Below, piece after piece: positions 4,700-28,160 of a stretch of DNA of 64,000 bases. The stretch's first letter is position 1. Each line of letters opens with the position of its first letter. The stretch covers positions 7,365,593-7,429,592 of the forward strand of contig NC_057759.1 in NCBI RefSeq assembly GCF_004010195.1. The letters run 5' to 3'. A model generated the notes under the pieces. That model saw nothing but the letters and a program-made list of their open reading frames with translations, ran no database searches and was not told where the DNA came from. This stretch comes from Chiloscyllium plagiosum. Lineage: Eukaryota. The position numbers and the translations under genes are program-made.

Positions 4700-5950
4700 G
4701 GAGAAAGAAGATGATTGTAGAGTCCTGTGATATGCTGCGTACCACAAGGATTGCTGCCGTGTCTATTGCTTTTTTTTCTCAATACAAATGACTTGGATTT
4801 TAATATAGTAGCATGGTTGTTAAGTTTGCACATTACACCAAAATTGTCGACATTGTTAACAGTGAAGGAGGTTATCTCTGGGTACAACGGGGCCTTGATC
4901 AGATGAGTCAATGGGTCAGGATATGGCAGATAGAATATAATGTGGATAGATATGAGGTGTTACCTTTTGGCAACGCAAATTAAGGCAAGACTTAAGTATT
5001 TAAACGGTGAGTCGAGAGGAGTGTTGCCGAAGTAAGAGATTTTAGGATGCAAGTTCGTAGTTCCTTGAAGATGGAGTCACCGTTAGACAGTGCAGTGAAG
5101 AAGACATTTGGTACTCTTGCCTTTATTGGTCAATTCATCGGGTATGAAAATGTGTTGCTGGAAAAGCGCAGCAGGTCAGGCAGCATCCAAGGAACAGGAG
5201 AATCGACGTTTGGGGCATAAGCTCTTCTCTGCCCGAAACGTCGATTCTCCTGTTCCTTGGATGCTGCCTGACCTGCTGCGCTTTTCCAGCAACACATTTT
5301 CAGCTCTGATTTCCAGAATCTGCAGTCCTCACTTTCTCCTCAATTCATCGGGTATGACAGTTTCAGCATTATTGGAGAGGTTACTTTTGAATGTTCCGTT
5401 CAATTTTGGATTACCAAAAATTCCAAGCATCTCCCTGTTATCGGAAAGATAATAGTAAACTTTAATCGGTGGAGAAAAGATTCACAGGATATTGCCGGGG
5501 CTGGACTTTTAGAACTACAGGGAGATAATGAATATTTCGTGCCTCTTTTCCTTGATGTTTCGGGAGTTTCGGGGTTACTTTCTGGCAGTTTATAAAATCA
5601 CAGGCTCGGATGCGGTGAATATCCAAAATCTTTTTCCCAGAGTAGGTGCAGACCAAAATTAGATGGCATAGGTTAAAGGTGAGAGGGGAAAGATTCAAAG
5701 GGCACCCAAATGGCAGCTTTATGATGTAGAAGGCTGTGTGCATCTGGACTGAGCTGCCAGAGGAAATGGCTGAGTCTGGTGCAATTACAATGTTGGAAAG
5801 TCATGTTAAAGGTTACGTGAATAGGAAGGGTTTAGTGGGATATGGGCAACAAGCTGGAAAATGGAACTTCATTAATTTAGGATATCAAGCCCGCATATTA
5901 GACCTTAGAACAGAACTGTCATTTTCCATTGTATGTACGGATATGACTCC
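4700..5950 (+). mobile_element. Old CR1 LINE 3' fragment, interrupted by a Penelope-like insertion
   Basis: Degenerate RT C-terminal sequence (aagtttgcacattacaccaaaattg; aggttaaaggtgagaggggaaagatt) and a CR1-type 3' tail (tatgactccatga). Confidence 0.8.
5148..5339. mobile_element. Short Penelope-like element end, inverted-repeat form, 18-bp TSD
   Basis: Inverted arms aaaatgtgttgctggaaaagcgcagc ... gctgcgcttttccagcaacacatttt. Direct repeat tcaattcatcgggtatga at 5130-5147 and 5340-5357. Confidence 0.8.
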
Positions 5951-6493
5951 ATGATATCGTATTATTTTCCAAAACACGCAGGTTATACACTGCTGCCTGT
6001 TGAAATAGCAGTGATCCTACGCCTTAGATATTGTGTAACGACATGTAGAACATACGATGCAAACTGATGAGTTTCTAAATGTTCTCCAGGGAAGGAAATC
6101 AGCTGCATGTGATTACAAGCTCACTGCAATGTGCTTGTCTTTTTAAGTTCTTTCTGGATAATTAGAGATGTACAATACGTTTGGTCAAACGAGTGATGCT
6201 CACAACCACTGAATGAACAAGAAGAAACATTTGCATTGTACTTTGAGATTATCAGTTCTGGAACAATGGTTGGACGGCAGCCCACCATATTTGACTTTAC
6301 TTAGCTGAAACACTACAGAGAGCTCCCATTGGTTTTCACCAGGTTAATCATTGTTCATGTCTGTCTCTCCACTTACAAATCTCCTCAGTCTGAGTAGATG
6401 GTTGACTGATGAGTGAAATGGTCCTTTCGCATGCACATCACGGAATAGTTTTTTTCTTTGCAATTATTAACAGCAATATAATTTGTGTTAACA

Positions 6494-6500
6494 TATAAAG
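6494..6500 (+). promoter_or_regulatory. TATA box of defensin copy 1
   Basis: TATAAAG starts 58 nt upstream of the ATG. The paralogous site TATAAG is at 22050-22055. Confidence 0.65.
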
Positions 6501-6551
6501 AGTTCCAATTCTCCAGGTAGTTCATAGTGCAGGAAAAGGTAATCAGCGGCC

Positions 6552-6645
6552 ATGAGAGCTTCCCTGTTCTTACTTCTTGGATTCTTGGTGATGGTGCAGC
6601 TGGGCACTGCTGAAGAAGGAGTGGAACCACGTCTTTTCTTTTCAG
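6552..6645 (+). CDS. Beta-defensin-like precursor, copy 1, exon 1 (signal peptide + acidic propiece: MRASLFLLLGFLVMVQLGTA-EEGVEPRLFFS)
   Basis: gcggccATG context, hydrophobic 20-aa signal ending G-T-A, consensus donor CAG|GTGAGT at 6646. The exon is 94 nt, giving a phase-1 intron. Confidence 0.88.
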
Positions 6646-7237
6646 GTGAGTCCATGTATCATCAAACATCGTTTAGAAGCATTCAGAAGGTCAGATGGAG
6701 GAGATTCATCCCCCTGAACACCACGTTCTCATCTGTAGTGTTTAGATTTACAAGTGCCTAAAATGAATTAGTTGACATGTACAAAATCTGTCCATGGGAT
6801 AGAGGCATCTCTGGCAAAACCGACATTTATTGGACCTTCCTAATGGCTCCAGAGGGCATTCAGTAGTCCATCACATTTCTGTGAATGTGGAGTCACATAT
6901 AAAGAAGAAAAGGGAAAAAATATCAGTTTACTTTCCCTGAAGGAAATGAGTGGAGTAGGTGTTTCTTACTTCCTTTACACAATTTGAACATGATCCGAAC
7001 TTCATTCCCTTCCATTGAGAGATTCGAAGACAGGTCCTCAGAATAGTTAGTCATGGATTGTGATTCTAGTGACAGTTCTGCATGTCCACCATCCAATCGC
7101 ATGACATTTGGTGAAGCAGTGCGGTCATTTCCCAGGAGTGCAGAATTTATTTTAGTTCACAACCATTTGTGCTGGTTTCTTGTTCACTAGAATTATTTCA
7201 CCATTTCATCAATTGCCTCCTCAACTTTACTTTCCAG

Positions 7238-7362
7238 GTGCAACCGTTGGCTGCGTAACCACTGGAGGAAAGTGCAGATTAGGAGGTTGTAAAGAGGGGG
7301 AAATCCAGCTGGAAGAGAAATGCTTAATACTTCTCAAGTGCTGCAAAGTTGACTTAAATTGA
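7238..7362 (+). CDS. Beta-defensin-like precursor, copy 1, exon 2 (GATVGCVTTGGKCRLGGCKEGEIQLEEKCLILLKCCKVDLN*)
   Basis: Polypyrimidine tract and tttccAG acceptor ending at 7237. Splices in frame to exon 1 (72-aa precursor). The C-x6-C-x4-C-x10-C-x5-CC spacing fits the beta-defensin signature, including the common GG-x-C before Cys2. Confidence 0.9.
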
Positions 7363-7494
7363 ATTGTGAAAATGTAATGCGGGCTACCAAGGTTCATCTG
7401 AGACTGTGGCTGAAGCTAACTGCTGTCTCTGTAATTTATTCGCTCTTGACTGTGTACATCCCCATAAAACCTTCTCCATTTCAATTGAATCGTG

Positions 7495-7500
7495 AATAAA
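7495..7500 (+). terminator. Polyadenylation signal AATAAA of defensin copy 1
   Basis: AATAAA about 130 nt after the stop codon, conserved in copy 2 at 23059-23064. Confidence 0.7.
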
Positions 7501-8061
7501 GCCCTCACTGCATTGCTCACATGTCGCGTCACGTGTCTTATTACAGAGTGTGCCCGGTATACGTTACATTGTCGCTAGTTTGGGGAGTGGAGGGGGATAA
7601 AACTCCAACAAATAGCAGTATCACAGTCGCCTCCACACTAGTCTTCTTCAGAGCCTAACATTTTGAGTCCATAGCAAATGACCAACTAATAATGTCTCTA
7701 GAATGAACGGGTGTATAATAAGCTGCTTCTTTCATTTCCATGATAACCTTCATCTAGAAAGCGAACTGCGACAGATATACAGTTCCCTGCAAGTTTCTTT
7801 CAGATCCACTCACCATCCTGATTTGGAAATGTGTCAGAGATTCCTTCTGTTTCATCAAAATCGGAGAATTCCCTCCCAAATATTTCTCTGTGGGCCATTC
7901 CATAGCACCGGGGCAGCAGATGGTTCAAGTAGAATTTCACTCGCATTTCCGAACATTCTCAAATGGACAAATGCGACGAGAAACAAATAACCGAATGGCC
8001 AGCATTCCTCACGACCCATTAGTGAAAACAAATCAAAAATTAGTAAATTCAGCAGTGGTGT

Positions 8062-8340
8062 TGAAAGAAAAAAAGAAATAAAGAAAGAAAGAGAGAAACA
8101 AGGGAAGAGAGAGAGAGAAATAGACAGAAAGAGGATAGAGAAAGAAAGTAAGAAAGAGAGAGAAAGGGAGTGAGAAACATAGAAAAAAGGATATCAGGAA
8201 AGAAAGAGATAGGAAGGAAGAGAGAGGAAGAAAGAGAGAGAAAGAAAGAGAGAGGAAGGAAGTGAGTGGAATGAAGAGAGAGGAAGGAAGACAGAGGAAG
8301 GAAGGAAGGAAGGCAGGAAGGAAGGAAGGAAAGAAAGAAA
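8062..8340 (+). repeat. Purine-rich (GA/GGAA/GAAA) low-complexity tract
   Basis: Directly visible. A shorter paralogous tract is at ~23890-24008. Confidence 0.9.
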
Positions 8341-9141
8341 ATTTCGTGTTTAGTTCTGTCAAGAAGTCTCACATTTTGGGAGATAAATGTGCTGGTGTCA
8401 GACTCAGTATCTGCAGCCGTCACTGTATTGTAACATACAACTATACGAAAATGACTGCAACAGCAGAATTACCTTCGCACATCCAACCAAAGAGAAAACA
8501 AACATGGAAGACATTTACCGACTTGCATTTAACTTTTGATCAATTTGTCAATGTTGTTGAGGAGCAGTCCACTACCATAGAACACCTACAGTACAGAAAC
8601 AAGCCATTCTGCCTAGCAAGATCTCTCCATAGGTTCAAAGAACAATCTTGTAGACGCAGCAATGACTTGCAAAATCCACACAGATATCCACCGAGGGTGG
8701 AACTGAACGTGGCTCTCTGCCACGACGAAGCAGCAGTGCGAAAGACCATGCCACTCCTGGGACACCGCAGTACCAATGTGACTGTCGTTGTTTCATGCAG
8801 GGGGAACTGGGTAATCGATTGGAGTAACTTGTGGGGTTTATCGGGATTGATGTTGCATTCAAAAAGCAAATATTGAATGCATGTGCAGTAATGTAGGGAG
8901 CCCAGAGGAGAGTGGGATTGTATTATTCTGAATGCAAAAGGGACAGAGAGACAGGAAGTCTTCGATTCTGAGTCATCATGTTGTATTTCACTCATTTAAA
9001 CTATTTGAAATTTCACATAGAGGTGGTTACAGAGGAAATCACACTCACACACACACACACAATACCAATCACAGGCACGCATGTACACACACTGAAAACA
9101 AAGCATACTCACCTCCTGCTCAAACTACATTGCAACAGATA

Positions 9142-10973
9142 CGACGTGTCCATGATATGTATGTACCTATCAGGCAGGAAAGAAATGGTCGTGTGAGGGA
9201 GCCTTGGTTGACGAGAGAGGTTGAATGTCTGGTAAAGAGAAAGAAGGAGGCTTACATAAGGTTGAGGAAACAGGATTCAGACAGAGCAGTGGAGGGATAC
9301 AGGATAGCCAGAAGGGACCTGAAGAAAGGGATTAGGAGAGCTAAGAGAGGGCATGAAAAATCGTTGGCGGATAGGATCAAGGATAACCCCAAGGCATTTT
9401 ATGCGCATGTGAGAAACCTGAGAATGACGAGAACGAGGGTAGGTCCGATCAAGGACAGTAGTGGGAGACTGTATATTGAGTCGGAAGTACTTCTCTTCAG
9501 TATTTACGAACGAGAGGGACCGTATTGTAGAAGAGGAGAGTGTGAAATGGACTGGTAAGCTAGAAGAGATACCTGTTAGGAAGGAAGATGTGTTGGACAT
9601 TTTGAACAACTTGAGGATAGACAAGTCCCCCGGGCCTGACGGGATATATCCTAGGATTATGTGGGAAGCAAGAGAGGAAATTGCAGAACCGTTGGCAATG
9701 ATCTTTTCATCTTCACTGTCAACGGGGGTGGTACCAGGGGACTGGAGAGTAGCGAATGTTGTGCCCCTGTTCAAAAAAGGGAATAGGGATAACCCCGGGA
9801 ATTACAGGCCTGTTAGTCTTACTTCTGTGGTAGGCAAAGTAATGGAAAGGGTACTGAGGGATAGGATTTATGAGTATCTGGAAAGACACTGCTTGATTAG
9901 GGACAGCCAGCACGGATTTGCGAAGGGTAGGTCTTGCCNNNNNGGAAGTCGTACGAGGGTAGGTTGAGAGTTCTCGGCCTTTTCTCGTTGGAACGGCGAA
10001 GGATGAGGGGTGACTTGGTAGAGGTTTATAAGATGATCAGAGGAATAGATAGAGTAGACATTCAGAAACTTTTTCCCCGGGTACAACAGAGTGTTGCAAG
10101 GGGACATAAATTTAAGGTGAAGGGTGGAAGGTATAGGGGAGATGTCAGGGGTGGGTTCTTTACCCAGAGAGTGGTGGGGGCATGGAATGCGCTGCCCTTG
10201 GGAGTGGTAGAGTCGGAATCATTGGCGACCTTTAAGCGGCATTTGGATAGGTACATGGATGGGTACTTAATTTAGGTTAGAAGTTCGGCACAACATCGTG
10301 GGCCGAAGGGCCTGTTCTTTGCTGTATTGTTCTATGTTCTATGTTCTAAAACTCTGGTGCGGCCGCACTTTGGAGTATTGCGTGCAGTTCTGGTCACCGC
10401 ATTACAGGAAGGATGTGGAAGCTTTGGAGAGGGTGCAGAGAAGATTTACCAGGATGTTGCCTGGAATGGAGAGGAAGTCGTACGAGGATAGGTTGAGAGT
10501 TCTCGGCCTTTTCTCGTTGGAACGGCGAAGGATGAGGGGTGACTTGATAGAGGTTTATAAGATGATCAGAGGAATAGATAGAGTAGACAGTCAGAGACTT
10601 TTTCCCCGGGTACAACAGAGTGTTACAAGGGGACATGAATTTAAGGTGAAGGGTGGAAGGTATAGGGGAGATGTCAGGGGTGGATTCTTTACCCAGAGAG
10701 TGGTGGGGGCATGGAATGCGCTGCCCGTGGGAGTGGTAGAGTCGGAATCATTGGCGACCTTTAAGCGGCATTTGGATAGGTACATGGATGGGTACTTAAT
10801 CTAGGTGGAATGCGCTGCCCGTGGGAGTGGTAGAGTCGGAATCATTGGCGACCTTTAAGCGGCATTTGGATAGGTACATGGATGGGTACTTAATCTAGGT
10901 TAGAAGTTCGGCACAACATCGTGGGCCGAAGGGCCTGTTCTGTGCTGTATTGTTCTATGTTCTATGTTCTATA
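9142..10973 (+). mobile_element. Young 5'-truncated CR1 LINE with reiterated 3' ends and a 5-N gap (9939-9943)
   Basis: Near-intact RT peptides (DKSPGPDGIYPR, GNYRPVSLTSVVGK, LEYCVQFWSPHYRKD) and (TTCTATG)n tails. Absent from the paralogous site at ~24780. Confidence 0.95.
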
Positions 10974-12856
10974 TATGAGACAGTGTATGGGTACTGTTGG
11001 AATATCAATACCAACTTTGACCATTTGGCTTACCGTCTGCCTGAAGAATTGAGGGGAAGAAAGCAAAAAAAAATCAAAATATGGTCAGTACCTTATGGGA
11101 GAGAAGAAGTCTGACTTTTCTCTGTCTTTACAGTAAATGGGAAAAAAAAAACAGAAATGATAGAGCAAGAGGAACTGGGAGAATGGAATCACTTTCAGCT
11201 GTTCAGCCACACATGCAGGTTCCCTCTGGATGATTGGAAAGAACCAGACATTTCAATTGCAGAATTATGTGGCATATCTGGTCCAAAACGGAATTTCAAA
11301 AAAACAACTGAGGTGAATGTCAGTGGATGTGTGGGGGAGACATCTAAGCAGCTATTTCATAACGTTCAGCAATGCTTGACTATGGGCAAAAAGAGAGACT
11401 CGAGAAGGAGATGAACCACCCGTGGTGCACAAAGGCTGTCAAGGACACAAACCAATCACAAACTAAAGAATTCAGATTGGCAAGCAGTAGTGTCGGCCGG
11501 GTTTGGGATGTTTATTTTTGGGAACAGAAGCAGGTAATACGAAGAAAAATGAAAGAAAAAGCACATAAGTAGCAAAACATTTTATAAACTCGCTGCAAGA
11601 CCTTTTCCGCACCGATTTAAAAAAAATACAATGTGTTTGTGACCCTTGGAAGAGACTCATTATATTACACGTGGAACAGCTGGAGGATGTAACTGGGGAA
11701 TTGATTTCAGGGAACAGGCGGAGAATTTACTCCAATGTTTTATATAGTTTCTTATAGCGGGAGTCACGAGGTATTTAATAGAACATAAAAGATAAAACAT
11801 AGAACGCTACAGCACAATACATGTTATTTGGCCTTCGATGTTGTGCTGACCTATCAATTAAATCTGATGCCCATTGAACATACACCAATCCATTGTTGTC
11901 CGCATGTGTGTCCAATGCCCATTTAAATGCCCTGAATATCAGGGAATCGATTACAGTTGCAGGCTGGCCATTCCACGCCACGACTACTCTCTGAGTAAAG
12001 AAACTACTCATTGTATCTGACATAAATCTGTCACCCCTCAATGTTAAACTATGTCCCCTTATGTAAGCCTTCACCATGCGAGGAAAAACGCCTTCAGTGT
12101 CCACCCTACCTCACCCTTGAATTATGTTATACGTCTTGATGAATTCACCTCTCAACCTTCTTCTCTCCAACGAAAATAGCTTCAGTTCCCTCAGCCTTTA
12201 CACGTAAAACCTTCCTTCCATTCAAGGAAACACCCCAGTAAATTTCCTCTGAACCCTTTCCAAAGCTTCCACGTCCTTCTTATAATGCGGTGAACAGAAC
12301 TGTACACAATACTCCATGTGCGGCCTTACCAGTGTCTTGTATACTTGAAATATGACTTGCTGGTTCCGAAAGCAGTCACACTACCAATAAAGGTATAGTA
12401 ACACACCGTATGCCTTCTTGACATCACTATCAGCCTGGATGGAAACTTTCAAGGATTTGCGCACCTGGACAAAGTTCAGGCTATGTTCATCTGCACTGCA
12501 AAGAGTTTTACCATTAATCCAGTAGTTAAATTCCTGTTACGTCTTCGGATGTGAACTACCTCACAATTTTCCGCATGAAACTTCATTTGCCAGTTCTCAG
12601 CCCAGCTCTACATCTTATCTGCTAAGATATTTGGATCATCGATAGTTACAGGTGAGGTGCCGGATGAGTGGACTTTGGCAAAAGTGGTGCCACTGTTTAA
12701 GAAGAGTGGCAAGGACAAGCTAGGGAACTATAAACGAGTGAGGCCGACCTCGGTTGTGGGCAAGTTGTTGGAGGGAATCGTTAGGGAAAGGATATACATG
12801 TATTTGAAAAGGCAAGGACTGATTAGGGATAGCCAACATGACTTTGGGTGTGGGAA

Positions 12857-13112
12857 GGAGAAAGTGAGGTCTGCAGATGCTGGAGATCAAAGTTGAAACT
12901 TTATTGCTGGAACAGCACAGCAGGTCAGGCAGCATCCAGGGAACAGGAGATTCGACGTTTCGGGCACAGGCCCTTCTTCAGGAAGGGCCTTCCTGAAGAA
13001 GGGCCTTCCTGAAGAAGGGCCTTCCTAAAGAAGGGCCTGTGCCCGAAACGTCGAATCTCCTGTTCCCTGGATGCTGCCTGACCTGCTGTGCTGTTCCAGC
13101 AATAAAGTTTCA
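12857..13112. mobile_element. Penelope-like element end, long inverted repeat with tandem 17-mer core, 16-bp TSD
   Basis: Inverted arms about 90 nt long; core of cttcctgaagaagggc repeats; actttgggtgtgggaa at 12841-12856 and 13113-13128. Confidence 0.8.
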
Positions 13113-13940
13113 ACTTTGGGTGTGGGAAATCATGTCTCACTTGATTGAGTTTTTTGATGAGGACAGAGCGGTAGATGTGACCTATGTGGACTTCAGTAAG
13201 GCGTTTGACAATGTTCCCCATGGAAGACTGATTTGCAAAGTAAGTTTTCATGAAATGCAGGGAAAACGTACCATTTGGAGACAGAATTGGCTCAAACGTA
13301 GAAGATAGATGGTGGTGGAGGGTTTTTTTTTCAGACTGGAGACCTGTGACCAGTGGAGTGCCAACAGGATCAGTGCTGGATCCTCTATTTTTTGTCACTT
13401 ACATAAATAATTTGTAAGCGAATGTAAGATGTACAGTTAGTGAGTTTGCAGATGACATCAAAATTGGAGGTGTAGTGGACAGCGAAGAGGGTTACCTCAG
13501 ATTACAACAGTATCTTGACCAGATGGGCCAATGGGCTGAGAAGTGGTAGATGGAGTTTAATTCAGATAAATGCGAGGTGCTGTATTTTGTGAAAGAAAAT
13601 CATAGCAGGCCTTATACACGTAATGGTAAGGTCCTACGAAGTGTTGCTGAACAAAGACATCTTGGAGTGCAGGTTCATAGTTCCTTGAAAGTGGAGTAGC
13701 AGGTAGATAGAATAGTGAAGAAGGCGTTTGGTATGCTTTCTTTTATTGGTCAGAGCATTGAGTACAGGAGTTGGGAAGTCATTTTGTGGCTGTACAGGTC
13801 ATTGGTTAGGCCACTGTTGGAATGTTGCGTGCAATTCGGGTCTCTGTCCTCTTGGAAAGATGTTGTGGAACTTGAAAGAGTTCAGAAACAAATTTACCGG
13901 GATGTTGCCAGGGTTGGAGAATTTGAGCAATGGGGAGAGG

Positions 13941-14063
13941 GGAAGGGCCTGTGCCCGAAACGTCGAATCTCCTGTTCCCTGGATGCTGCCTGACCTGCTG
14001 TGCTGTTCCAGCAATGAAGTTTCAACTTTGATCTCCAGCATCTGCAGACCTCACTTTCTCCCC
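13941..14063 (+). mobile_element. Penelope-like element end, single arm
   Basis: gaagggcctgtgcccgaaacgtcgaatctcc ... cctcactttctcc, same family as 12857 and 17410. Probable ggagagg TSD. Confidence 0.75.
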
Positions 14064-17000
14064 GGAGAGGCTGAACATGCTGGGGTTATTTTCCCTGAAG
14101 TGTCGGAGGCTGAGGGGTGACCTTATAGAGATTTACAAAATTATGAGGGGCACGGATTGCGTAAATATGCAAAGTCTTTTCCCTGGAGTCGGGGAGTCCA
14201 GAACTAGAGGGCATCGGTTTAGGGTGAGAGGGGAAAGATATAAAAGAGACCTAAGAGGCAACTTTCTTTCACACAGAGGGTGGTACGGGTATGGAATGAG
14301 CTGTCAGAAGCAGTGGTGGAGGCTGCAACATTTGCAACATTTGAGAAGCATTTGGATTGGTATATGAAAATGAAGGGTTTGGAGAGATTTGGGCCGGCTG
14401 CTGGCAGGTGGGCCTAGATTGGGTTGGGATATCTGCTCGGCATGGACGGGTAGGACCGAAGGATCTGTTTCCATACTGTACATCTCTATGACTCTGTGAC
14501 TCTGTAACCCATAACATCCACCGGCACTATCCACAACCCTGCCTAACTGTGTGTCATCAGCAAGTTTATGAAACCATTCTTCTACGCCACATACTTTACA
14601 CAAATGACAAATAAAAGATAGCCAAAAACAGATCCTTACAGCACACCACTGATAACTGATCTTCAGGATGAACATTTTCAATCAACCCGCTGATTTCTTT
14701 CAGCTAACGAATTTCTGATCCAAACCGCTAAATCACCTTCAATCTCGAAACGCTGCATTTTGTGCAATAGCCTACCGTGTGAAAGCACACAAACGCCTGG
14801 CTGAAGTTAATATGCACACATCGGCCGCTTTGCCTTCATTCACCTGTTCTGTCACCTTCTGTAAGAACTCAGTAAGGTTATTAAGGCATGACCAACCCTT
14901 CTCAAAACCGTGTTGACTATCCATAATCAAATTACTCCTTTCCAGATGATACAAATATTATCTCTTATAACATTTTCTAACACATTACCCAGAACTGAAG
15001 TAATTCTCTCTGACCTATACATATCAGGTTTAAGCCGAGTCCCCTTCTTAAAGAAGGGTACAGCATTTGCTGTCGTCCAGACATCTGACACTCCTCCTGC
15101 CGACAATGAACCATTAAGATCAAAGCTAAAGTCTCTGCCATCTCCTCCCTGGCTTCCCAGAGAATCCGAGCATAAATCCCATCCAGTCCAGGGGGCTTAT
15201 CTATTTTCAAAATTCTCAAAATTGCTGAAATCTCCTCTTTGTCAAACACAATATCATCTAATCTAGAACCTTACCTATCCGTATTGTTACTAACATTGCC
15301 CTTTTCCAATGTGATTACTGATAAAAAGTCTTCACTAAGCTCTTCCCCTATGTCCTTCGTTTCCACGCAAAACTTCCCACTACTATCTTTGATTGGCCTA
15401 ATATTCCTCTAGTCGTTCTTTAATTCCGGATATTCCTATCAAACGCTTGGAACATTCCTTGATCTTATCCAGCAGCAACTTCTCATATCCACTCCTGGCT
15501 CTTCTTAGCCCTCTCTGTGTATCATTTCTGGCTAACGTATAACTCTTAAGCCACCTATTTGAGGCTACACACTTTATCCTCACGTAAGCCATCTTCTACC
15601 TCCTGAGAAGAGCTTCAACTTCTTTAGTAAGCCATGGTTGATAGGTATTTACTTATCAAGGACCCGCTATAGCAACTTCTTAACAAGCTCCACAGTTCAC
15701 GTGTGTCCATTCCCTGCAGTTTCCTTCCCCATTCTATGCTTGTTAAATCTTGCCTAATCGCATCACAATTGTCTTTCTCCCAATTATCCCTCTTTCCCTG
15801 CTGTACATACCCATCCCTGTCCATTGCTAATGTAAACATAACCGAATTGTGCTCACAATCGCCAAAGTGCTCACCGACGTCCAAATCTAACACCAGGCCG
15901 CGTTCATTCCCCAGTACCAAATCCAAAATGGCATCGCCCTTTGTTGGCCTGTCTACATACTGTGTCAGAAGACCCTCCAGCACAGATTGAGTAGAAACTT
16001 ACACATCTAAAATACTTGAACTGTATTATTCCCAGTATATATTGGGGACGTTTATGTCCCCATACCAACTACCCTGTTACTCTCGTTCCTATCGAGAATC
16101 ATCTTTGCTATCCTTTTTTCTCCACCTTTGGAACAATTCAGAAGCTTATAGAAAACTCCCAATAGTGTGACTTCCCCTTCCCTGTTGCTAACCTGAGCCC
16201 AAACTATCTCAGTACTCGAACATTATCTCAGCTGCTGTAATACTAACCTTGATTAACAATGCCAACCCCTCCACACCAGCCTCAACCCCTTTTATCATCT
16301 TCGCTGTTCTTACTGAAACATCTACTTAGCGGAATCTGCAACAACCATTCTAGGCCCTCCTCTAGCTACGTCTCTGAAGTAGCCACAACATCGAAATCCC
16401 AGTCACCAAACCAGGCTGCAAGTTCACTCATCATATTCTGAATTTTTCTGGAATTTACATACACACATTTCAATTCAAAAACCTAATTGCAGGTGCCCTA
16501 TCGCGACCTCTAATCCTATCCCTGACTTCTTTACCCTCAACCTCCTGTACATTGGAATTACAATTCATATTGCCATCTGCCTGCTGCATTATTTTAAAAC
16601 ACCTCCCCCGAAGACCATTAACAATTCTGCCCCCAGCCCAATGATATTGGTACCTCTCTGGATTATTTGAAGACCATCCTGTTTTAGAAGAGCCACCTTC
16701 CCCAGAAAGTGCACAAATTATCGCCGAATCCAAAAACCTCTCTTCTATACTATTCCTGCAGCCACATGTTCAGCTCCGCTCTTTCCCTGTTGCTCGCTTC
16801 ACCCGCAGGTGGGACGACCAACAAAACAGAGATAAAACCTCTGTTGTTCTAGCTCGAAGTTTGCACACGAGCTCCCCGAATTTCTGCCTGAGATACCATC
16901 TATCTTCCTACCTTCTTTGTGGGTGCCAATATGGACCACGATTTGGGCCTGCTCCCCCTTCTCCGAAAGGGTCACAAAATCACGATCAGGGATATTACGA

Positions 17001-17409
17001 ACCCTGACACGTGGGAGGAAACACACCGACTGTGAGTCTCTATCGTTCCCACAAAACCTCCTACCTGTCCCCCGACAATGAAATCGCCAATGACAAAAAC
17101 TCTGTTCCTCTTCCCCTTCCCCTCTGAGCAACAGAGACAGACTCTGCGCCAAGAGACCTGCACCCTATTGTTTTTCCCTGGTAAGTAACCCAACACCCAA
17201 CAGTATCCAACACGGTATTGATGCTGTTAAGGGGAACCACCACATGACTTCCCTGCACTTGCAGACACTCTACCTTCTTCACGCGACTGTGGAGGAACTA
17301 CCTTCATGTAACTCCTCTCAGTAACCGCCTTCTCCTCCTCAGTTATCCAAAGAAAATCCAAATGAAACTCCAGTTCCCTCAATGAGCTGGAGTTGGTTGG
17401 GCATCACAC

Positions 17410-17562
17410 TTCTCCTGCTGAACACTCTCTGCTCATTCCTGAAGAAGGGCCTGTGCCCGAAACGTCGAATCTCCTGTTCCCTGGATGCTGCCTGACCTGC
17501 TGTGCTGTTCCAGCAATAAAGTTTCAACTTTGATCTCCAGCATCTGCAGACCTCACTTTCTC
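17410..17562 (+). mobile_element. Penelope-like element end, 8-bp TSD
   Basis: Same family sequence; catcacac at 17402-17409 and 17563-17570; empty paralogous site at ~33395. Confidence 0.78.
17435..17470 (+). ncRNA. Minimal type-I hammerhead ribozyme motif
   Basis: attc-CTGAAGA-a-gggc(ctgt)gccc-GAAA-cg-TC-gaat. Stem I attc/gaat, stem II gggc/gccc, conserved core, vestigial palindromic stem III. Confidence 0.7.
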
Positions 17563-18099
17563 CATCACACAAATGAAGTCAGCAGGGACAATAGAGATGA
17601 CCCTTACCTCCAACATTCTGCAGGAGGAACATTCAACTGCCATAACCTCCAATCATACTATTCTAAATACCCAAACAGATCACTGAAATAAATGAAACAC
17701 GAAGAAAAAGCACTTGCTACCTTCCCAACAGACGCACAGACCTTTTATTTTCATTAGAGGAGAAGGATAGATGGGAGACATTAAACAAATAGTCTTTTGG
17801 CAAAAGCAACAGCCCAAATATGTAACCTCGTGAACTCTCTGACAGACGTCAGGATCTCAAGAACAGGGGACCTAAAGTGAATTAACTTAGATTGTATACA
17901 CACTTATCCCGACAGGATCCACTGCTTCCTGGTGACCTTGCAGCATCTCCGACACACTCCAGGAACTATATTATAAGAAAGATGGTATCACGAAGTCTGT
18001 TCTTGAACTATCTCTATCAAAAGGAACAAGGCTTTTTTCAAACAGATAAGACAAAGCATCGACAAATCAGCAGCAAGTGACACACGGTTTAGAAGAAGC

Positions 18100-20700
18100 G
18101 GTTAAAGAGTAGACTGGTGGCACAGTGTGAAACATTCTTTAACTCTCTGGGTGGAATGAGTGTTCCAGAGAAACTGGAGAACCTCAAAGTGGGACATGTC
18201 TTCATGAAGGTCGTGGGACAGAAAACAAGAGACTACAGGCCATTCAGCCTGACAATTATGATTGGAAATATGCATCATTCTGCTATTCAGGAAGGAATTG
18301 CATATCATTCTAAAAAGCTTAACGCAATCAGATGCAACACGCTTTTGTGAAATGGGAATTTTAATTTGCACAGAAATATCATGCAAATTCTTGCAACATA
18401 TTTGATGAGAACAAAACCAGCAGATTTGGTGAAAGGAAAATGGATAGACCGCGAATTGGGTTTTCAGAATCTTTCAATATGGTTCTTAACATAACAAAAG
18501 AAAGGTTCTTACACAAGACAGAGGCTCATAATCTGACAGAAAATGTAACGGATGGATTTAGGATTTTTTAACACAGGAAAGATGGAGAGTCGGGATTAAT
18601 GGGTCTTTATGTGATTGAAAAGATACTTCTGCCAGAGTACTACAAATATCAGTCCTGTAGCAGCAGTTATTTACAATCTATACTTATGGCTTGAAGGCAG
18701 GGGATGAGTGCATTATATCCGAGTTTGTGGATGTCACAAACATATGTGGAAGTCCATATGGCAGTAAGGATGTAAGGAATCTGAAAGGGGAGGTAGATAA
18801 TGTCACTGAGAGGGCAAATAATTGGCAAGTGGAGAGTATGGTGTTAAAAAATGCATGAGATCCTCCACTTTACCCGTGAGGTCCCAAACGGCAGGCTGTT
18901 ACCGAATGGAGAATACTCGGAAAAAGAAGTGCAGTATAAAGGGATTTGGCTTTTATGTGTATGAAACATAAAGTTAGCGTGGAGGTGCAGCAAGTAATTC
19001 GGGGGAGTCATTAGGTTTTTTTTTGGTAAGAAAGTGCTTTTTTATCAAGAACAAATTACTTGTGGGGCTTCCCAAAGTAAGTGTTGAGAATGTAGTTCAA
19101 CTCCTGTGCAGAATCTCAAACTCGGGGCATAGACAGAGAATCAGCAAACTTAATTTAAAATTGACATGCAGAGAAATGTATTTTCTTCAGAACTTAGTGA
19201 GTGTCTGGAATTGCATAACCCAGAGAGTTGTGGCGGCTGGGTTATGGAAAGTCTTTACAGATAGAATGGATGGGTTTTTGACATATTGGCTTGTTGAGGG
19301 ATGCCCGGCGTCGGCAGGAAAGTGGAGTTGAGCCTTGATGTAGGTCAGCAATATGCTTATTTAATGACAGGTAGACTTGAGGAACCCAATAGACTACCCC
19401 TGTTCCTATTTCATACGTTATCACGCTCAGTTATTGGAAAGCAACTAGTTACTTTCCTGCAAGTCACGTTGTGCAACAATGCATTGACGGAGAGCAGAGG
19501 ATTAGAGTGAGCGAACCTTGTGTGGGGTATGGTGGCTGTATTCACAGTAAACCTGGGATTGCAAAATGGCTCACATTGGGAGCAGAGAGGAGAAGCCTGG
19601 AAAGAGGGATTGTGGTGTTGGGGGTGGCACGATTTTTCTTAGCCAGCAGAGATTTCTAACTGCATTTTCCGACCCTACACCTAAGGTTAGGAGTGGCCTC
19701 GGTCTGCTCCAGTGTAGCAGGGTGGAAGGGTAGAATGGAAAATCAGAACATAGGGCTAAGGGTCCCAAGTGAGCCATTCGGCCTATTGATACTGCTGAAC
19801 GAGTAAATAACTTCATGGCTAATCCCATTATGCTCTCAGCTGCACTTTTCTGTAAAGCCCCCATCATCCCTTATTGACCTGTCTACCAAATGTCGAACTA
19901 AGTTCGCCTTGATATAATATAAAGATTGAGCCATCACAAACTTCTGGGAAAGAGAATTCCCACTTGAATGAATTCCCAACTTGTGAATTTCTCCTCATTC
20001 CGTTTTCCCGTCCCATTTATCCTCTGGTCACAATAGATTTTAACTGTAACCGGATTGGTGATATGGTCAATGATAAAGTTTCAGACTGGCTCAGGTTCAG
20101 TGATAGGAACAAGTCAGGCAGATTTCTTTAGTCAACAACAAATAGTAGGCTAATTCCTGATGTGAGCTGCCGCTACAAATGTACAAAGCCTAATGACGAC
20201 AAATTTGGATGATAAAAACATCCAACGAGTCTCCAACTGATCCATTCTCCTCAAATTACTGTATGACATTATAAGATCACCTGTCATTTCAAGGGTTAAA
20301 CCCCATAATATAAGCCCTTCAATCCGGGAGTAAATGAAGTGAAACATCTCTGAACAGTTTCTAAAGTAACTATATCCTTTCTCAGTTCAGAACACCAAAC
20401 ACACTTCACACACAGTTCTAGGGATGTGTTCTCAGTCAGACTGGTGCAGCTGCAGAAACGCGCCCTTTCCACAGGGTTGTTTAAAAATACACCCAGCTGG
20501 CGCATTTTACATCTTTTTTTTCTTTTATATATTATCTTCAATTTATTACTGTGACGAGAACATTTATTTTCTTTTCTCAGAGTGCTGTGAGACTTGTTGG
20601 AAATTCTCTTCTCAGACAGCATTGGAGGCAGAGATACGGAACATTTCTGAGACACAGAGAGAAAGTCTCATGGATACAATGGAGTCAAGGATTATGAGGG
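18100..20700. mobile_element. Highly decayed CR1 fragments (+ strand ~18100-19400, - strand ~19750-20700)
   Basis: Remnant peptides DYRPFSLT, FLQNLVSVWN, LETVQRCFT. Confidence 0.65.
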
Positions 20701-21422
20701 AGTGGGCAAGAACGTGCAGAGTGGGTGAAAAATGCAGACAATGCTACTAAATGAAACTGCATTTTACCAGAGCAGCCAGAAATATAATGCAAGATGAAAT
20801 GATAACTTTAAAATGCTGGAAGTGATGGAATTATGTTGCTCTCGTCCCAGAGAACCGTCAGGCAGACCAATTATGGTGGTTGAACCTGATTGGCACCACT
20901 CCTCCAGTGTGGAGGTGAGGTTGAGAAACCTGGCCCTTCATAGTAACCTCTGTCAGTGTGGGAAATTGAACCTGCGCTATTGACCTTCCTCTGCATTAGA
21001 AACCAATCATCCAGCCAACAGAGTGGGAGACTATGCAACTGTTATGGACAGAAATAGTCAAAGACAAATGGCAATATAAACTTGGATAAGAAGGAAGAAG
21101 CTACGAGTCAGACAATATTCATGATAAAGGCTCACTGAGATATTACAATACTTTCAATATTGTATTGCTGGAGACAATTCATATTCTGCACACTGATGAG
21201 TGCTATGATTCTAAGACATCGCATTGTTGTCCAAACGACGCAGGTTATACACTGTTGCCTGTCCAAAAATCAGTGATCATACACCTTAGATATTATGTTA
21301 CCATATGCAGAACTGATGAGTTTCTAAATGTCCTCCAGGGAAGGAAACCAGCTGCATGGGATTACAAACTCACTGCAATGTGCTTGTCTTTTTAATGTCC
21401 CACTGAATGCTTGGAGGTTCGT

Positions 21423-21727
21423 GGGCGGTACGGTGCTACAGTGGTTAGCACTGCTTCCTCACAGCGCCAGAGACCCGCGTTCAATTCCCGACTCAGGCGA
21501 TTGACTGTGTGGAGTTTGCACATTCTCCCCGTGTCTGCGTGGGTTTCCTCCGGGTGCTCCGGATTCCTCCCACAGTCCAAAGATGTGCAGGTCAGGTAAA
21601 TTGGCCATGCTAAATTGCCCGTAGTGTTGGGTAAATGTCGGGGAATGGGTGGGTTGCGCTTTGGCGGGTCGGTGAGGACTTGTTGGGCGGAAGGGCCTGT
21701 TTCCACACTGTAAGCAAGTAATCTAAT
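21423..21727 (+). mobile_element. tRNA-derived SINE (HE1/V-SINE type)
   Basis: A-box/B-box head (cagtggttagcactgc ... gttcaattcc), V-domain tgtgtggagtttgcacattctccccgtgtctgcgtgggtttcctccggg, CR1-like 3' tail. Absent at paralogous ~6150. Confidence 0.92.
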
Positions 21728-22107
21728 GCTAGAGATGCACCGTACACTTTGATCGCCACGTCGACTGGATGAACAAGAAGAGCATTTAAGTTATAATTTA
21801 AGATTATCAGTTCCGGAACGATGGTCGGATACTAGCCCTCCTTATTTGATTATACTTAGCTGAGTAACTGCAGAGAATTCCCACTGATTTTCACCAGGTT
21901 AGTCATGATTCATTTCTGTCCCTCCACTAACAAATCTCCTTAATCTGAGTACATGATTCACTGATGAGCGAAATGGTCCTTTCTCATACACATCACGGAA
22001 TCGTTCCTTGCTTTTGCAATTATTAACAGCAATGTAGTTTGTGTTATCCTATAAGGAGTTCCCATTCTCCAGGTAGCTCACAGTGCCGAAAGAAGAAATC
22101 AGCGGCC

Positions 22108-22923
22108 ATGAGAACTGCCCTGTTCTTACTTCTGGGATTCTTGGTGACAGTGCAGCTGGGCACTGCTGATGAAGGAGTGCAACCACTTCTTCTCTTTCAA
22201 CGTGAGTCCATGTCTCCCCAAACATCCTTTAGAAGCATTCAGAAGGTCAGTTGAATCTGATTAGTTCCCTGAAAACTACATTCACATCTGTCGTGTTTAG
22301 ATTTACAAATGTCTAAAAAGAATCAATTGATACCTCCAAAAACCGGCCATGGAATGGACGCATCTCTGGCAAAGCTAACATTTTTTGTACCTTCCTAATG
22401 GCCCCAGAGGACATTCAGAAGTGAAACACGTTTCTGTGACTCTGCAGTCACATATAAAGAAGAAACGATAAGAACATCAGTTTACTTTCCCTGAAGGATA
22501 TGAGTTGAGTATTTATTTCCTATTTTCATTTCACAATTTAAACGTCATTCAAACTTCATTACTTTCCATTGAGAGATTCGAAGACAGGTCCTTAGAACAT
22601 GAGCTTGTTAATTCTGGATTCGATTCTGGTGACAGTCCTGCAAGTCCACCCTCCAGTCTCACGGCATTTGGTGAAGCAGTGCAGTTATTTCCCATGAGTG
22701 CAGAATTCATTTTAGGTCAGAAGCATTTGTAATGTTGTATTTTAGATTAGAATTATTTCACCATTTCATCAATTACCTCCTCATCTTTGCTTTCCAGATT
22801 GGCGCAACCGCTGCGAACAGTCTGGAGAGGTATGCAAGGTTGGAGAATGCCCAGAGGGTCAAAGTCGAGGTGGAAGGGAACTGCTTATTGCTTCTCAAGT
22901 GCTGCAAAGATGTCTTAAATTGA
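22108..22923 (+). pseudogene. Beta-defensin-like copy 2, join(22108..22201,22798..22923), +1 frameshift near 22860 (pseudogene or base-call error)
   Basis: Exon 1 is MRTALFLLLGFLVTVQLGTADEGVQPLLLFQ with donor GTGAGT at 22202; acceptor tttccAG ends at 22797. Exon 2 is 126 nt versus 125 in copy 1. Removing one base gives HWRNRCEQSGEVCKVGECPEG(K/Q)VEVEGNCLLLLKCCKDVLN*. Confidence 0.85.
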
Positions 22924-24751
22924 ATCGTGAAAGGGTAAATGTGCGGGCTACCAAGGTGTGTCTGAGACTGTGGCTGAAGCTAGCTGCTGTCTCTGTAATT
23001 TATTGTCTCTTGACTGTGTACGTCCCCAAAAAACCTTTTCCATTTCTACTAAATCGTAAATAAAGCCCTCACTGTATTGCTCACATGTCGTGCCACGAGT
23101 CTTCTTACAGACTGTGCGCAGTATGAATGATATTGTCGCTACTTTGGGGAGTGGAGGTGGAAGAAAGTCCAACAAAAGCAGATACGCAGTCGCCTCTGTT
23201 GGCTGCAAACTAGCCTCCTTCAGAATCTTACATTTTGAGTCCATAGCGAATGACAAACTAATATTGTCTCAAGTATGAGCAGGTGTATAATAAGCAACTC
23301 CTTCCATTTCCATGGTCACTTTCAACCAAAAGGTGAACGGCAACAGATACACAGGAATTCCACCACCCTGCTAGTTTCTCTCTGATCCACTCACCGTCCT
23401 GATTTCGAAATGTATAAGCTGTTACTTATGTTTCATCAAAATCCGAGAATTTGCTCCCAATCGTTTCGTTGTGGGCCCCTTCACAGCACCCGGCCAGCAA
23501 ATGGTTCAAGTAGAAGTTCACTCGCATCCCCAAACATTCTCAAACGGACAACTGTGACGAGCGACAAATAACTGAACGGCCAGCGTCACTCAAGACGCAT
23601 CAGTGAAAAGAAATCATGGGTTAGTGAATTCAGTGAAGTTGTGCTTTTCGGGGAATTAATCTCTGGGATGTCCTTCCCTACCACACCCCGCTTTCATCTG
23701 ACTGCAACTCTGTCTTGTTGCCTACTACTGAGTCGTTTTCCATCCTTCTGTTCTCTTTGACTCTCAAGACTCGACTGTGAAACTGTTCAATTGTTACAAA
23801 TGTTCATAAATGAATGCAAAAACTAGATTCCTCACGCATGTCGAGCACTGTAAATCCTCGAGCTGACGCTTACTGAAAGAAAGCAATAAGGAGTGAAACG
23901 AAGAGAGAAGGAAATAAAAAAAGAAAGAAGAGAGAGAGAGAGAGAAATAAATAAAGGAAAAACGAGGGAAAATAAACAACCACCCAACCAAAGGAAGAAA
24001 GAAAGAAATGTTCCTACTGAGTTCTGTCAACAGCTCTCACATTGTGGTGGAGAAATGTGCTGGTATCAGAACCAGCATCTGCACACGTCACTGTATTGTA
24101 CAGTATAAATGGATGAATACCACCGCAATACCAAAATTACCCTCACATCCCCGAATAAAACGTGAACAAACATGGAAGAAGTCTACCGACTTCCCCCTAA
24201 CTTTAGATCAGTTTGTCAATGCTATTAAAGAACAGTCTACTAACGTAGCACACCTACAGTGCGGAAACAAGTCATTCGGCCGAGCGAGGTCTCTCCATAG
24301 CTTCAAAGAGCAGCCTTGTGGACACAGTGATGACGTGAAAACTCCACACAGATATGCACCAAGAATGGAACTGAACGCAGCAGAACCCAACCCCATGCCA
24401 TCCCTGGAGGACAGCCGGACCAATGTGACTGCGGTTGTTTCATGCTCCAGGTGGACTGGGTTATCGGTGTGAACCACTTGAGATGGTTGCCTGAATTGAT
24501 GTCGCATTAAAAAAGCAAACATTGAATGTTTGTGCGGTGATGTAGGGAGTACAGCGGAGCATGGGATTCCATCTTTCTGGACGCAGGACGGACTGAGAGA
24601 TAGGAAACTCTTAGATTTTGAGTCATCATGTTGTAAATCACTCACTTAAAGGTTTTGGCATTGCATGGAGAGGTGGTCACAGAGTGACACACACACACAC
24701 AAACAGTCACAGACACGTATGTACACACAAGGAAAACACACGCATACTCAC

Positions 24752-24847
24752 CTTCTTCTCAATCTACATTGAAATAGGGATATGAGAAAGGGTATGGGCA
24801 CTGTTTGAATAGCAAGGCCAGCTTTGATAATTTGGCTTTCACTCTGC
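24752..24847 (-). other. Candidate 96-nt internal exon (antisense to the defensin), product unknown
   Basis: Minus-strand polypyrimidine tract with ttcttCAG acceptor and AAG|GTGAGT donor. Both sites are conserved in unit A (11040 and 9113), and one frame is open in both copies. Confidence 0.4.
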
Positions 24848-25254
24848 CTGAAGAATTGAGGGGAAGCAAAGAAAAAAACACACTATGGTCAGTCCCTCAT
24901 GGGAGAGAAGAAGTATGAAACATTATCGAGAGAAAGAGTTAGCTTCCAATGCAATCATGATTGTCAGCTTGTCATTCTCTCACATGTCTTTCCTTAACTC
25001 CTGTTTGTCTTCGTTTGACGTTCCCCTTTTCCAACTTCCTGTCGTTATCTGTTGGTCTCTGCATTTCTCTTTCTCTCTCGGACTCTGTCTCTCTTTCTTG
25101 TTCAATGTCTGTGTCTTTCTCTCTGACGCTGTCTTGTTCTGTGTCCCTTTCTATCTTTCTCTCTCTGTAACGCTCTCACATACATCCCCGCTCCACTCCT
25201 ACACCTCATCCTGCTTTATTTCAATCTCTCGCTTCTATTTCTTTCTCTCCAGAT

Positions 25255-28160
25255 ACCACAGTCAGGGCAGGCAGGGACAAGGTAGGACGAATAGATTAAA
25301 CTGCACTTATTTCAATGCAAGGGGCCGAACAGGGAAGGCAGGTAAAGTCAGGGCATGGTTAGCAACATGGGACTGGGATATCATAGCAATTACAGAAACT
25401 TGGCTCAGGGATGGGCAGGACTGGCAGCTTAATGTTCCAGGATACAAATGCGACAGGAGTGATAGAAAGAGAGGCAAGACTGGGGGGGGGGGGGGGGGAG
25501 TAGCATTTTTGATAAGGGATAGCATTACAGCTGTGCTGAGGGAGGATATTCCCGGAAATACATCCAGGGAAGTTATTTGGGTAGAACTGAGAAATAATAA
25601 AGGGATGATCTTCTCATTGGGATTGTATTATAGACCTCGTAATAGTCAGAGGGAAATTGAGAAACAAACTTGTAAGTAGATATCAGCTAACTGTAAGAAT
25701 AATAGGGTAGTTATGGTAGGGGATTTTAACTTTCCAAACAGCGACTGGGACTGAACAGAGTGTTAAAGGTTTAGATGGAGAGCAATTTCTTAAGTGTGTA
25801 CAAGACAATTTTCTGATACAGATTGTGGAAGTACCTACTATAGAGAAGGTGCAAAACTCGACCTACTCTTTGGAAATAAGGCAGGGCAGGTGCCTGAGGT
25901 GTCAGTGGGGGAGCACTTTGGGTTTTAAAATAATGATAGAAAAGGATAGACCAGATCTAAAAGTTGAATTTCTAAATTGGAGAAAGGCCAATTTTGACGA
26001 TATTAGGCAAGAACTTTCGGCAGCTGATTGGAGGCAGATGTTCGCAGGTAAAGGACGGCTGGAAAATGAGAAGCCTTCAGAAATGAGGTAACAAGAATCC
26101 AGAGAAAGTATATTCCCTTCAGAGTGAAAGGAAAGGCTGGTAGGTATATGGAATGCTGGATGACTCAAGAAATTGAGGGTTTTGTTCAGAAAAAGAAGAA
26201 AGCATATGTCAGGTCTTGACAGGATTGATCGAGTGAATCCTTAGAAGAGTATAAAGAAAGTAGGACTATACTTCAGAGAGAAATCAAAAGAGCAAAAAGG
26301 GGACATGAGATAGCTTTGGCAAATAGAATTAAGGAGAATCCAAAGGGTTTTTACAAATATATTAAGGAAAAAAGGGTAACTAGGGAGAGAATAGGGCCCC
26401 TCAAAGATCAGCAAGGCGGCTTTTGTGTGGAGCCACTGAAAATGGGAGGGATACTAAATGAATGTTTTGTATCAGTATTTGCTGTGGAAAAGGATATGGA
26501 AATTACAGACTGAAGGGAAATAAATGGTGACATCTTGCAAAATGTACAGATTGCAGAGGAGGAAGTGCTGGATCTCTTGAAACAGGAAAAGGTGGATAAA
26601 TCCACAGGACGTTATCAGGTGTACCAGAGAACTCTGTGGGAAGTCAGAGAACTGATTGCTGGGCCTCTTGATGAGATATTTGTATCATCAATAGTCATAG
26701 GTATGGTGCCGGAAGACTGGAGGTTGACAAAAGTGGTGCCATTTTTTAAGAAGGGTGGTGAAGACAAACCAGGGAAGCATAGACCTGACCTCGGTGGTGG
26801 GCAATTTGTTGGAGGGAATCCTTAGGGACAGGATGTACATGTATTTGGAAAGGCAATGACTGATTAGTGGTATTCAACATGTCTTGGTGCGTGGGAAATC
26901 ATGTCTCACAAACTTTATTGAGTTTCTTAAAGCAGTAACAAAGAGGATCGATTTGGGCAGAGCAGTAGATGTGATCTATATGGACTTCAGTAAGGCGTTT
27001 GACAAGGTTTCCCATGGGAGACTGGTTAGTAAGGTTAGATCTCATGAAATACAGGGAGAACTTGCCATTTTGATACCGAACAGGCTCAAAGGTAGAAGAC
27101 AGGGGGTGGTGGTGGAGGGTTATTTTTTAGACTGGAGGCCTGTGATGGGTGGAGTTCCACAAGGATCGGTACTGGGTCTTCTACGTTTTGTCATTTACAC
27201 AAATAATTTGGGTGCGAGCATAATAGGTACAGTTAGTACGTTTGCAGATGACACCAAAATTGGAGGTGTAATGTACAGCGAAGAGGGTTACCTCAGATTA
27301 CAACAGGATCTGGACCAGATGGGCCAATGGGCTGAGAAGTGACAGATGGAGTTTAATTCAGATAAATGCGAGGTGCTGCATTTTGGGAAGCAAATCTTAG
27401 CAGGACTTGTACACTTATTGGTAAGGTCCTAGGAAGTGTTGCTGAACAAAGAGACCTTGGAGTGCAGGTTCATAGCTTCATGAAAGTGGAGTCGCAGGTA
27501 GATAGGATAGTGAAGAAGACGTTTGGTATGCTTTCCTTCATTGGTCATAGTATTGAGTACAGGAGTTGGGAGGTCATGTTGCGGCTGTACAGGACATTGG
27601 TTAGGCCACTGTTGGAAAGTTGCATGCAATTCTGGTCTCCTTCCTACCGGAAAGATGTTGTGTAAGGTGAAAGGGTTCTGAAAAGATTTACCAGGATATT
27701 GCCAGCGTTGGAGGATTTGTGCTATAGGGAGAGGCTAAACAGGCTGGGGCCGTTTTCCCAGGAGCGTCGGAGGCTGAGTGGAGACCTTACAGAGGTTTAC
27801 AAAATTATGAGGGGCATGGATAGGATAAATAGGCAAAGTTATTTCTTTGGGATCGGGGAGTCCAGAACGAGATGGCATAGGTTTAGGGTGGGAAGGGAAA
27901 AATAAAAAAGAGACCTAATAAGCAACCTTTCCAAACAGAGGGTGATGCGTGTTTGGAATGAGCTGCCAGAGGAAGTGATGGAGGCTGGTGCAATTGCAGC
28001 ATTTAAAAGGCATTTGGATGGGACTATGAATCGGAAGGGTTTGTAGGGATATGAGCCAGGTGCTGGCAGGTGGGATTAGATTGGGTTGGGATATCTGGTC
28101 GGCATAGACGGGTTGGACCGAAGGGTCTGTTTCCATGCTGTACATCCCAATGACTCCATG
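25255..28160 (+). mobile_element. CR1 LINE, near-complete ORF2 with stops and frameshifts
   Basis: LNCTYFNARG, DIIAITETWL, YMDFSKAFDKV, GVPQGSVLG, FADDTKIG motifs and 3' tail. Absent from unit A. Confidence 0.95.

Follow-up and report, generated by a model that had tools for sequence, protein, structure and literature searches.

A two-exon beta-defensin-type gene of the bamboo shark Chiloscyllium plagiosum, apparently spliced and expressed, and its large family of related loci

A gene of the beta-defensin type, built of two coding exons, lies in the bamboo shark Chiloscyllium plagiosum within a 64,000-nucleotide stretch of DNA, here called the window, on contig C50 (8.1 Mb) of a 3.56 Gb genome. 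The locus is apparently an expressed member of the beta-defensin family, its splicing having been read in a putative RNA run that carries the label of another species. As judged by searches of the genome, the gene does not stand alone but belongs to a family that numbers about 100 loci. The initial annotation had attributed the gene to a cartilaginous fish, and this origin is borne out by an alpha-globin exon of the same genome, which is 100% identical over 68 amino acids to a public C. plagiosum protein and 87% identical to a C. punctatum protein. Among single-domain PDB chains, the closest to this exon are 1gcv, 3mkb and 1cg5, which come from two sharks and a ray.

The gene is on the plus strand. 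A TATA box (TATAAA, 6494-6499) stands 58 nt upstream of the ATG, a spacing shared by 3 of 13 other family gene models, with a spacing of 53 nt in one more. Coding exon 1 (6552-6645, 94 nt) begins with the start codon at 6552 in the context GCC-ATG and encodes a signal peptide of about 20 residues and a short acidic pro-segment. After these 94 coding nucleotides comes a phase-1 GT-AG intron of 592 nt (6646-7237), with the donor GTGAGT at 6646 and, at its other end, a pyrimidine tract and a CAG whose last base is 7237. Coding exon 2 (7238-7362) holds a six-cysteine domain of predicted beta-defensin fold and the TGA stop codon (7360-7362), which closes an open frame of 72 amino acids with cysteines at residues 37, 44, 49, 60, 66 and 67 (gaps of 6, 4, 10, 5 and 0). 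The 3' UTR (7363-7500) ends in AATAAA (7495-7500), and contigs of the putative RNA run reach 7491. Promoter box, Kozak-type start, intron, cysteine spacing, stop, poly(A) signal and precursor length all lie where the initial annotation had placed them. Its signal peptide agrees with the properties of the leader, which is conserved in 17 gene models and combines Arg2 with a hydrophobic core, whose Kyte-Doolittle mean over 11 residues reaches 3.1, and with small residues at -3 and -1 before residue 21. The acidic pro-segment is about 11 residues long, and a furin-type site is absent from the 72-residue precursor.

By itself, the cysteine motif is only modest evidence for a gene. It occurs once in an open frame of the window, and it also arose in 5 of 100 order-2 Markov resamples of the window (mean 0.05). 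The gene is judged to be real because the exact splice joint is present in run X1 and because many paralogs have the same architecture, and these two observations rule out a chance open reading frame. A transposon-derived fragment was likewise rejected, as the locus has no repeat similarity and self-BLAST finds a single further copy, copy B. A search of the window against Rfam returned no match.

Seventeen sequencing runs were listed as matching the stretch, none of them recorded as RNA, and four of the 17 were aligned to the window at 85% likeness. Run X1 is RNA by guess, and its species label differs from that of the best DNA matches. Nineteen of its contigs fall on the locus at this likeness. 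Contig depth, a poor measure of expression, was 1,239-1,323 over exon 1, 8,600-30,900 over exon 2 and the 3' UTR, and about 18 in the intron, with a depth of zero before 6488 and from 7522; coverage by the RNA contigs begins at 6534. In one X1 contig a 592-nt gap with GT..AG ends matches the predicted joint 6645^7238 exactly; the joint proposed as a check on the gene is thereby present in a contig of a putative RNA run of another species label. This contig differs from the window at 14 of 142 nt and is about 90% identical over exon 2, and an X1 contig of the intron, compared over 608 nt, shows 52 differences and 24 gap letters. The likeliest source of the spliced contig is the ortholog of a close relative, since the closest paralogs fetched from the C. 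plagiosum genome reach about 75% identity in exon 2 (81-84% in the intron). The DNA-like run X2, which may not be independent of the assembly, covers 6300-7472 with six differences, no gap and no splice joint. The single-cell runs X6 and X7, which bear the label of the best DNA matches, yielded 0 aligned reads in the roughly 2% and 6% of them that were sampled.

Two further structures appear in X1 at the 5' end of the gene. One contig extends beyond 6534 in the 5' direction by about 840 nt that were not found in the window; a 20-nt piece of this extension matched nothing there even with three mismatches allowed. In another, a joint steps back 98 nt inside exon 1 (region 6534-6650). These structures may reflect an upstream exon, an insertion in that species or an assembly artefact.

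The assignment of the peptide to the beta-defensin type is supported by several lines that are each weak and that all converge on the same family. Its cysteines fit the avian motif C-x4-6-C-x3-5-C-x9-10-C-x5-6-CC, described with the CTSB-TRAM2 cluster (PMC11874394). The best sequence match in the PDB is duck AvBD3 (E 0.019), to which all six cysteines align, and the family profile leads to hBD-3 at E 0.072. AlphaFold2 models of exon 2 built with 11 and 18 family rows have pLDDT values of 80 and 83 and predict a helix (3-7) and three strands (11-14, 21-27 and 32-37). Foldseek, run on the first of these models, found 0 matches at E<=0.001; its top 12 rows were AvBD3 and human beta-defensins. In a VIA-align comparison with 48,161 chains, in which a Z below 8 may reflect common arrangement alone, hBD-2 ranked first (Z 5.0, rmsd 1.5 A over 37 residues), followed by AvBD3 (Z 4.7) and CpoBD13 (Z 4.5), and the top nine rows were all vertebrate beta-defensins. 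The top three Atlas clusters are beta-defensins as well (0.84, 0.81 and 0.77), which we treat as a lead only. Position of the intron, cysteine alignment and both fold searches thus agree with the earlier call of a beta-defensin, and the predicted fold is compatible with it. From the cysteine alignment and the fold, disulfides C1-C5, C2-C4 and C3-C6 would be expected. The proposed Pfam check had a mixed outcome: the window peptide scores 6.8 bits against PF00711, where the cut-off is 21, and some paralogs exceed the cut-off at 21.4-24.1 bits. In sets of 11 and 18 members of the family, six of each match PF00711, with a best E of 1.8e-5.

The window holds a second copy of the gene. Self-BLAST reveals a tandem segmental duplication of about 15 kb, with a first unit at 5942-19371 on the plus strand and a second at about 21204-34730, whose blocks are 75-86% identical to the first. 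Copy B (22108-23064, plus strand) has an intact 94-nt exon 1 (22108-22201), a 596-nt intron (22202-22797) with intact splice sites, and AATAAA at 23059. Its exon 2 is interrupted by a frameshift near 22860, after the third cysteine, so that copy B is a probable pseudogene or carries an assembly indel. The family profile found no third copy in the 64-kb window. Exon 1 of copy B is 100% identical over 94 nt to that of locus L002 (C50, about 7.807 Mb), and their introns are 91.7% identical, which hints at gene conversion.

The window also holds other elements. Among them are a 65-bp satellite (49108-51918, about 43 copies, about 67% matches) and a diverged G-rich satellite-like array (59830-64000, GC skew 0.4). 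Broken pieces of non-LTR retrotransposons, with matches to the PF03372 endonuclease and the PF00078 reverse transcriptase, lie at 24852-25676, 26860-27339 and 9.3-10.9 kb, and a perfect 94-bp tandem pair at 10712-10900. Three copies of an element of about 310 bp, 80-90% alike (21420-21727, 29906-30220 and 58768-59078), presumably resemble a V-SINE/HE1-type SINE of sharks. Two open frames on the minus strand (35580-36095 and 52867-53379), for which Pfam gave no credible match, look alike on visual inspection and are probably what is left of a single repeat.

The genome was searched with six protein queries, for a tally of 139 distinct places, which leaves out the 25 weakest rows of one search and four redundant rows of another. 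At least 100 places have E<=0.01, with 43 on contigs C1-C51 and 57 on small unplaced contigs. The 43 are concentrated on three small chromosomes, C49 (21), C46 (12) and C50 (7), with one each on C45, C43 and C27, and become 54 once 11 weaker ones that were read as sequence are added. These family counts are lower bounds, and some of the 57 unplaced places, most of them unread, may be alleles. From 98 fetched loci, which include three globin loci and many redundant or noise, 33 distinct six-cysteine cores were obtained, and 32 of them have the exact 6-4-10-5-0 spacing. Median pairwise identity of the cores is 31%; three residues, a Gly before C2, an Arg after C2 and a Glu between C3 and C4, are each conserved in 29 of 32 cores. 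Coding exon 1 is 94 nt long in all 17 full gene models, a length first seen in scans that allowed 55-125 nt and then fixed for modelling, and the phase-1 intron measures 409-1,355 nt. About 20 of the fetched copies are broken by stops, lost cysteines or a lost acceptor. A search of the genome with PF00711 returned 28 matches (best E 0.15), of which six are members of the six-cysteine family and the rest mostly fragmentary noise. Searching the genome for a short DNA pattern of C-x5-CC was uninformative, with more than 600,000 matches. In a tree of the family built from 32 rows and 36 columns, 3 of 29 inner branches are well supported; most of it is unresolved, and no order of events was drawn from it.

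Several loci depart from the common layout. L019, L020, L053 and L060, on C49 and unplaced contigs, have a seventh cysteine in the exon-1 pro-segment, through which dimers might form covalently; all but one of these four are cationic, with an exon-2 charge of +4 to +5. L010 carries exon 2 twice (C46, 3859755 and 3860138), 383 bp apart and differing at one residue, either as alternative last exons or as an assembly artefact. L093 and L098 (C16) and L094 (C37) have a family-type exon 1 with an in-frame stop, the six-cysteine exon being absent from the fetched stretch; read from these remnants, they are dispersed dead copies on larger chromosomes.

Exon 2 changes faster than the intron before it. 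Among the three closest intact copies on C50, compared pairwise, non-synonymous differences in the mature core are 0.31, 0.43 and 0.42 against 0.18, 0.16 and 0.10 in the intron (Fisher p 0.011, 5.9e-7 and 1.5e-11). The whole core was used for this test, a split of exon 2 into 65 and 42 nt having been chosen post hoc from the alignment. Exon 1 is 86-94% identical among these copies; for the 3' region, one pair could be compared over the full length and shows 93% identity. At synonymous sites exon 2 also has raised differences (0.34-0.52), giving dN/dS of about 0.7-1. Part of this rise comes from the many changed codons that differ at two or three bases, which are the majority in each pair (10 of 18, 17 of 22 and 14 of 19). 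Five other pairs, taken without an intron comparison, have dN/dS of 0.3-1.2. Diversifying selection is the best reading of the faster change in exon 2, and homogenisation of the flanks by gene conversion could lie behind part of the contrast between exon and intron.

The net charge of the window peptide is +0.7 for exon 2 without the pro-segment and -1.2 with it, which is below the +4 or more of classic cationic beta-defensins; hBD1-4 carry +4 to +11 (PMC7304343 Table 1). Across the family the charge ranges from -2 to +7 with a median of +2, 13 of 32 peptides having +1 or less and 7 of 32 having +4 or more. Because the window copy is far below the Pfam cut-off and barely cationic, antimicrobial action would not be implied by its membership of the family.

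The initial annotation had considered the gene short enough to escape annotation, and the protein searches agree with it. The exon-2 peptide drew one candidate from public proteins of 71-2000 amino acids and the family alignment drew four from proteins of 19-70 amino acids, none of which scored; both results are weak evidence, and the globin control was added for that reason. The family profile found 0 relatives at E<=0.001 among 1.84 billion representatives. That no relative appeared in protein collections that contain the globin of the species suggests, as something less than proof, that annotation has passed the family over. A literature search, with subscription fish-immunology journals mostly outside it, found no defensin reported from a chondrichthyan, which does not establish absence from print. 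The term 'beta-defensin' has 0 occurrences in the available portions of the shark genome papers. Section 14 of one review names transferrin, squalamine and kenojeinin as the antimicrobial peptides of sharks and skates and, in the part available, no defensin (PMC6795676). Beta-defensins have been placed 'from teleost fish to mammals' (PMC7203481), the accessible text of PMC13203813 does not mention sharks, and in that of PMC10707392 defensin appears in a reference only.

We consider it rather probable that the gene serves epithelial host defence, acting through the binding of a target or receptor more than through charge-driven lysis. The 72-residue precursor would enter the secretory pathway and be cleaved after residue 20, with the acidic pro-segment either retained or trimmed, and the domain would fold into a short helix and a three-stranded sheet held by the three bonds given above. 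The peptide would be secreted in quantity at an epithelial surface for host defence. There it would bind either a particular target on the microbial surface or a receptor of chemokine type on host cells; such binding is favoured over charge-driven membrane lysis because the charge is about +1 and a hydrophobic stretch lies between C4 and C5. Repeated duplication together with diversifying selection on exon 2 would produce a repertoire of specificities in a family that evolves by birth-and-death.

The alternative that survives best, although we think it unlikely, keeps the same gene and fold and assigns it a mainly reproductive role in male ducts, seminal fluid, the oviducal gland or egg-case fluid. 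Its hypervariability would then come from sperm-coat or gamete interactions instead of microbes, as for many mammalian beta-defensins. Beta-defensins are expressed in the male tract (PMC7304343), and such a role would suit the low charge of much of the family, the rapid change of the mature exon, and a very high exon depth in one run with none elsewhere among the runs listed. Host defence is compatible with it, however, and several subfamilies are clearly cationic. That the window copy is instead decaying or functionless in its species, with other paralogs alone of importance, is improbable. Many fetched paralogs are broken, including its neighbour copy B, and dN/dS is near 1 in several pairs, but the frame, six cysteines, both splice sites, TATA box and poly(A) signal of the window copy are intact, X2 matches it over 6300-7472 without a gap, and X1 contains the apparent ortholog in spliced form and in abundance.

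Slightly less probable again is a ligand of a receptor or ion channel (signalling, pigment or toxin-like), of the kind that arose as offshoots in snakes, lizards and the platypus. In venom-peptide families a conserved signal and conserved flanks accompany a hypervariable mature exon, the pattern seen here, and the VIA-align ranking includes crotamine and the platypus DLP (Z 3.2, 2.9 and 2.5). Those rows nevertheless stand below nine beta-defensins, the strong basic charge is absent, and we know of no venom organ in the bamboo shark. Squalene synthase, which we take to be a neighbour of CTSB, was used as a single-gene proxy for synteny with the avian CTSB-TRAM2 cluster, and its matches lie on C9 and C4 and not on the defensin-rich C46, C49 and C50. 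This missing link, the weak sequence scores, the empty search of 1.84 billion representatives and an exon 1 longer than the 55-58 nt of teleosts (PMC8231796) could suggest a shark-specific six-cysteine group that converged on the trans-defensin fold without homology to vertebrate beta-defensins, but we regard this as the least credible reading given the same cysteine spacing, the conserved Gly and Glu, paralogs above the PF00711 cut-off and a phase-1 intron where beta- and big defensins have theirs (PMC7203481).

We offer a wider proposal more tentatively, at less than even confidence. It holds that sharks possess an undescribed and very large beta-defensin repertoire of about 100 loci, dozens of them intact, which fills the smallest chromosomes, has the two-exon layout that has been proposed as ancestral for vertebrates, and has a mature exon that diversifies two to four times faster than signal exon, intron and UTR. 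With many of its products neutral or acidic, it would be a repertoire for recognition or signalling suited to high-salt, urea-rich fluids and not one of cationic antibiotics. If a shark has a spliced gene of two exons, the origin of the beta-defensin family shifts back to the ancestor of jawed vertebrates. It would also support the proposal of a two-exon ancestor, in which the third exon of teleosts and birds is derived (PMC8231796). A family of about 100 loci, compared with at most seven in teleosts, would change the picture of innate immunity in sharks, and its many natural, weakly charged variants would allow a test of charge-independent, salt-stable activity. The family seems to be invisible to standard annotation and largely to Pfam. 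Its interest lies in a large, fast-diversifying, weakly charged two-exon family more than in the single copy of the window.

Compared with known systems, the shark peptide shares its fold class with crotamine and the platypus DLP, which have lower structural ranks than the beta-defensins; unlike them it is not strongly basic, and a venom context is without evidence. With the big defensins of amphioxus, molluscs and horseshoe crab it has in common a phase-1 intron 5' of a beta-defensin-like domain, at a position that beta- and big defensins share (PMC7203481), and the C-domain of oyster BigDef1 aligns to the shark model at Z 3.3. A big defensin was rejected, as about 11 residues separate signal and intron and there is no hydrophobic N-terminal domain of about 40 residues. 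Teleost beta-defensins resemble the shark gene in their six-cysteine fold, fish host and signal peptide of about 20 residues, and the flounder provides a precedent for anionic character and for a pro-region of 5-15 residues (PMC8231796). They differ in having three exons and no more than about seven copies per species, whereas the shark has two coding exons, many more copies and a coding exon 1 of 94 instead of 55-58 nt (PMC8231796). A teleost-type gene was rejected, since the stop lies inside exon 2 and the coding region has a single joint.

Tetrapod beta-defensins (PF00711/PF13841) provided the solved structures for comparison: AvBD3 (7lzl), hBD-1, hBD-2 (1fd3), hBD-3 (1kj6) and CpoBD13 of a crocodile (7t9q). 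Unlike these, the window copy has a charge of about +1 and lies far under the Pfam cut-off, and the shark family combines a fixed 94-nt exon 1 and a pro-segment of about 11 residues with a near-invariant 6-4-10-5 spacing despite a median identity of 31%. Its roughly 100 loci compare with about 33 human genes and 14 avian lineages. Shared with the tetrapod genes are the signal peptide, the phase-1 intron before the cysteine module, the avian-type motif, a helix with a three-stranded sheet (here predicted) and clustered birth-and-death evolution, and the mammalian genes, like that of the shark, have two coding exons.
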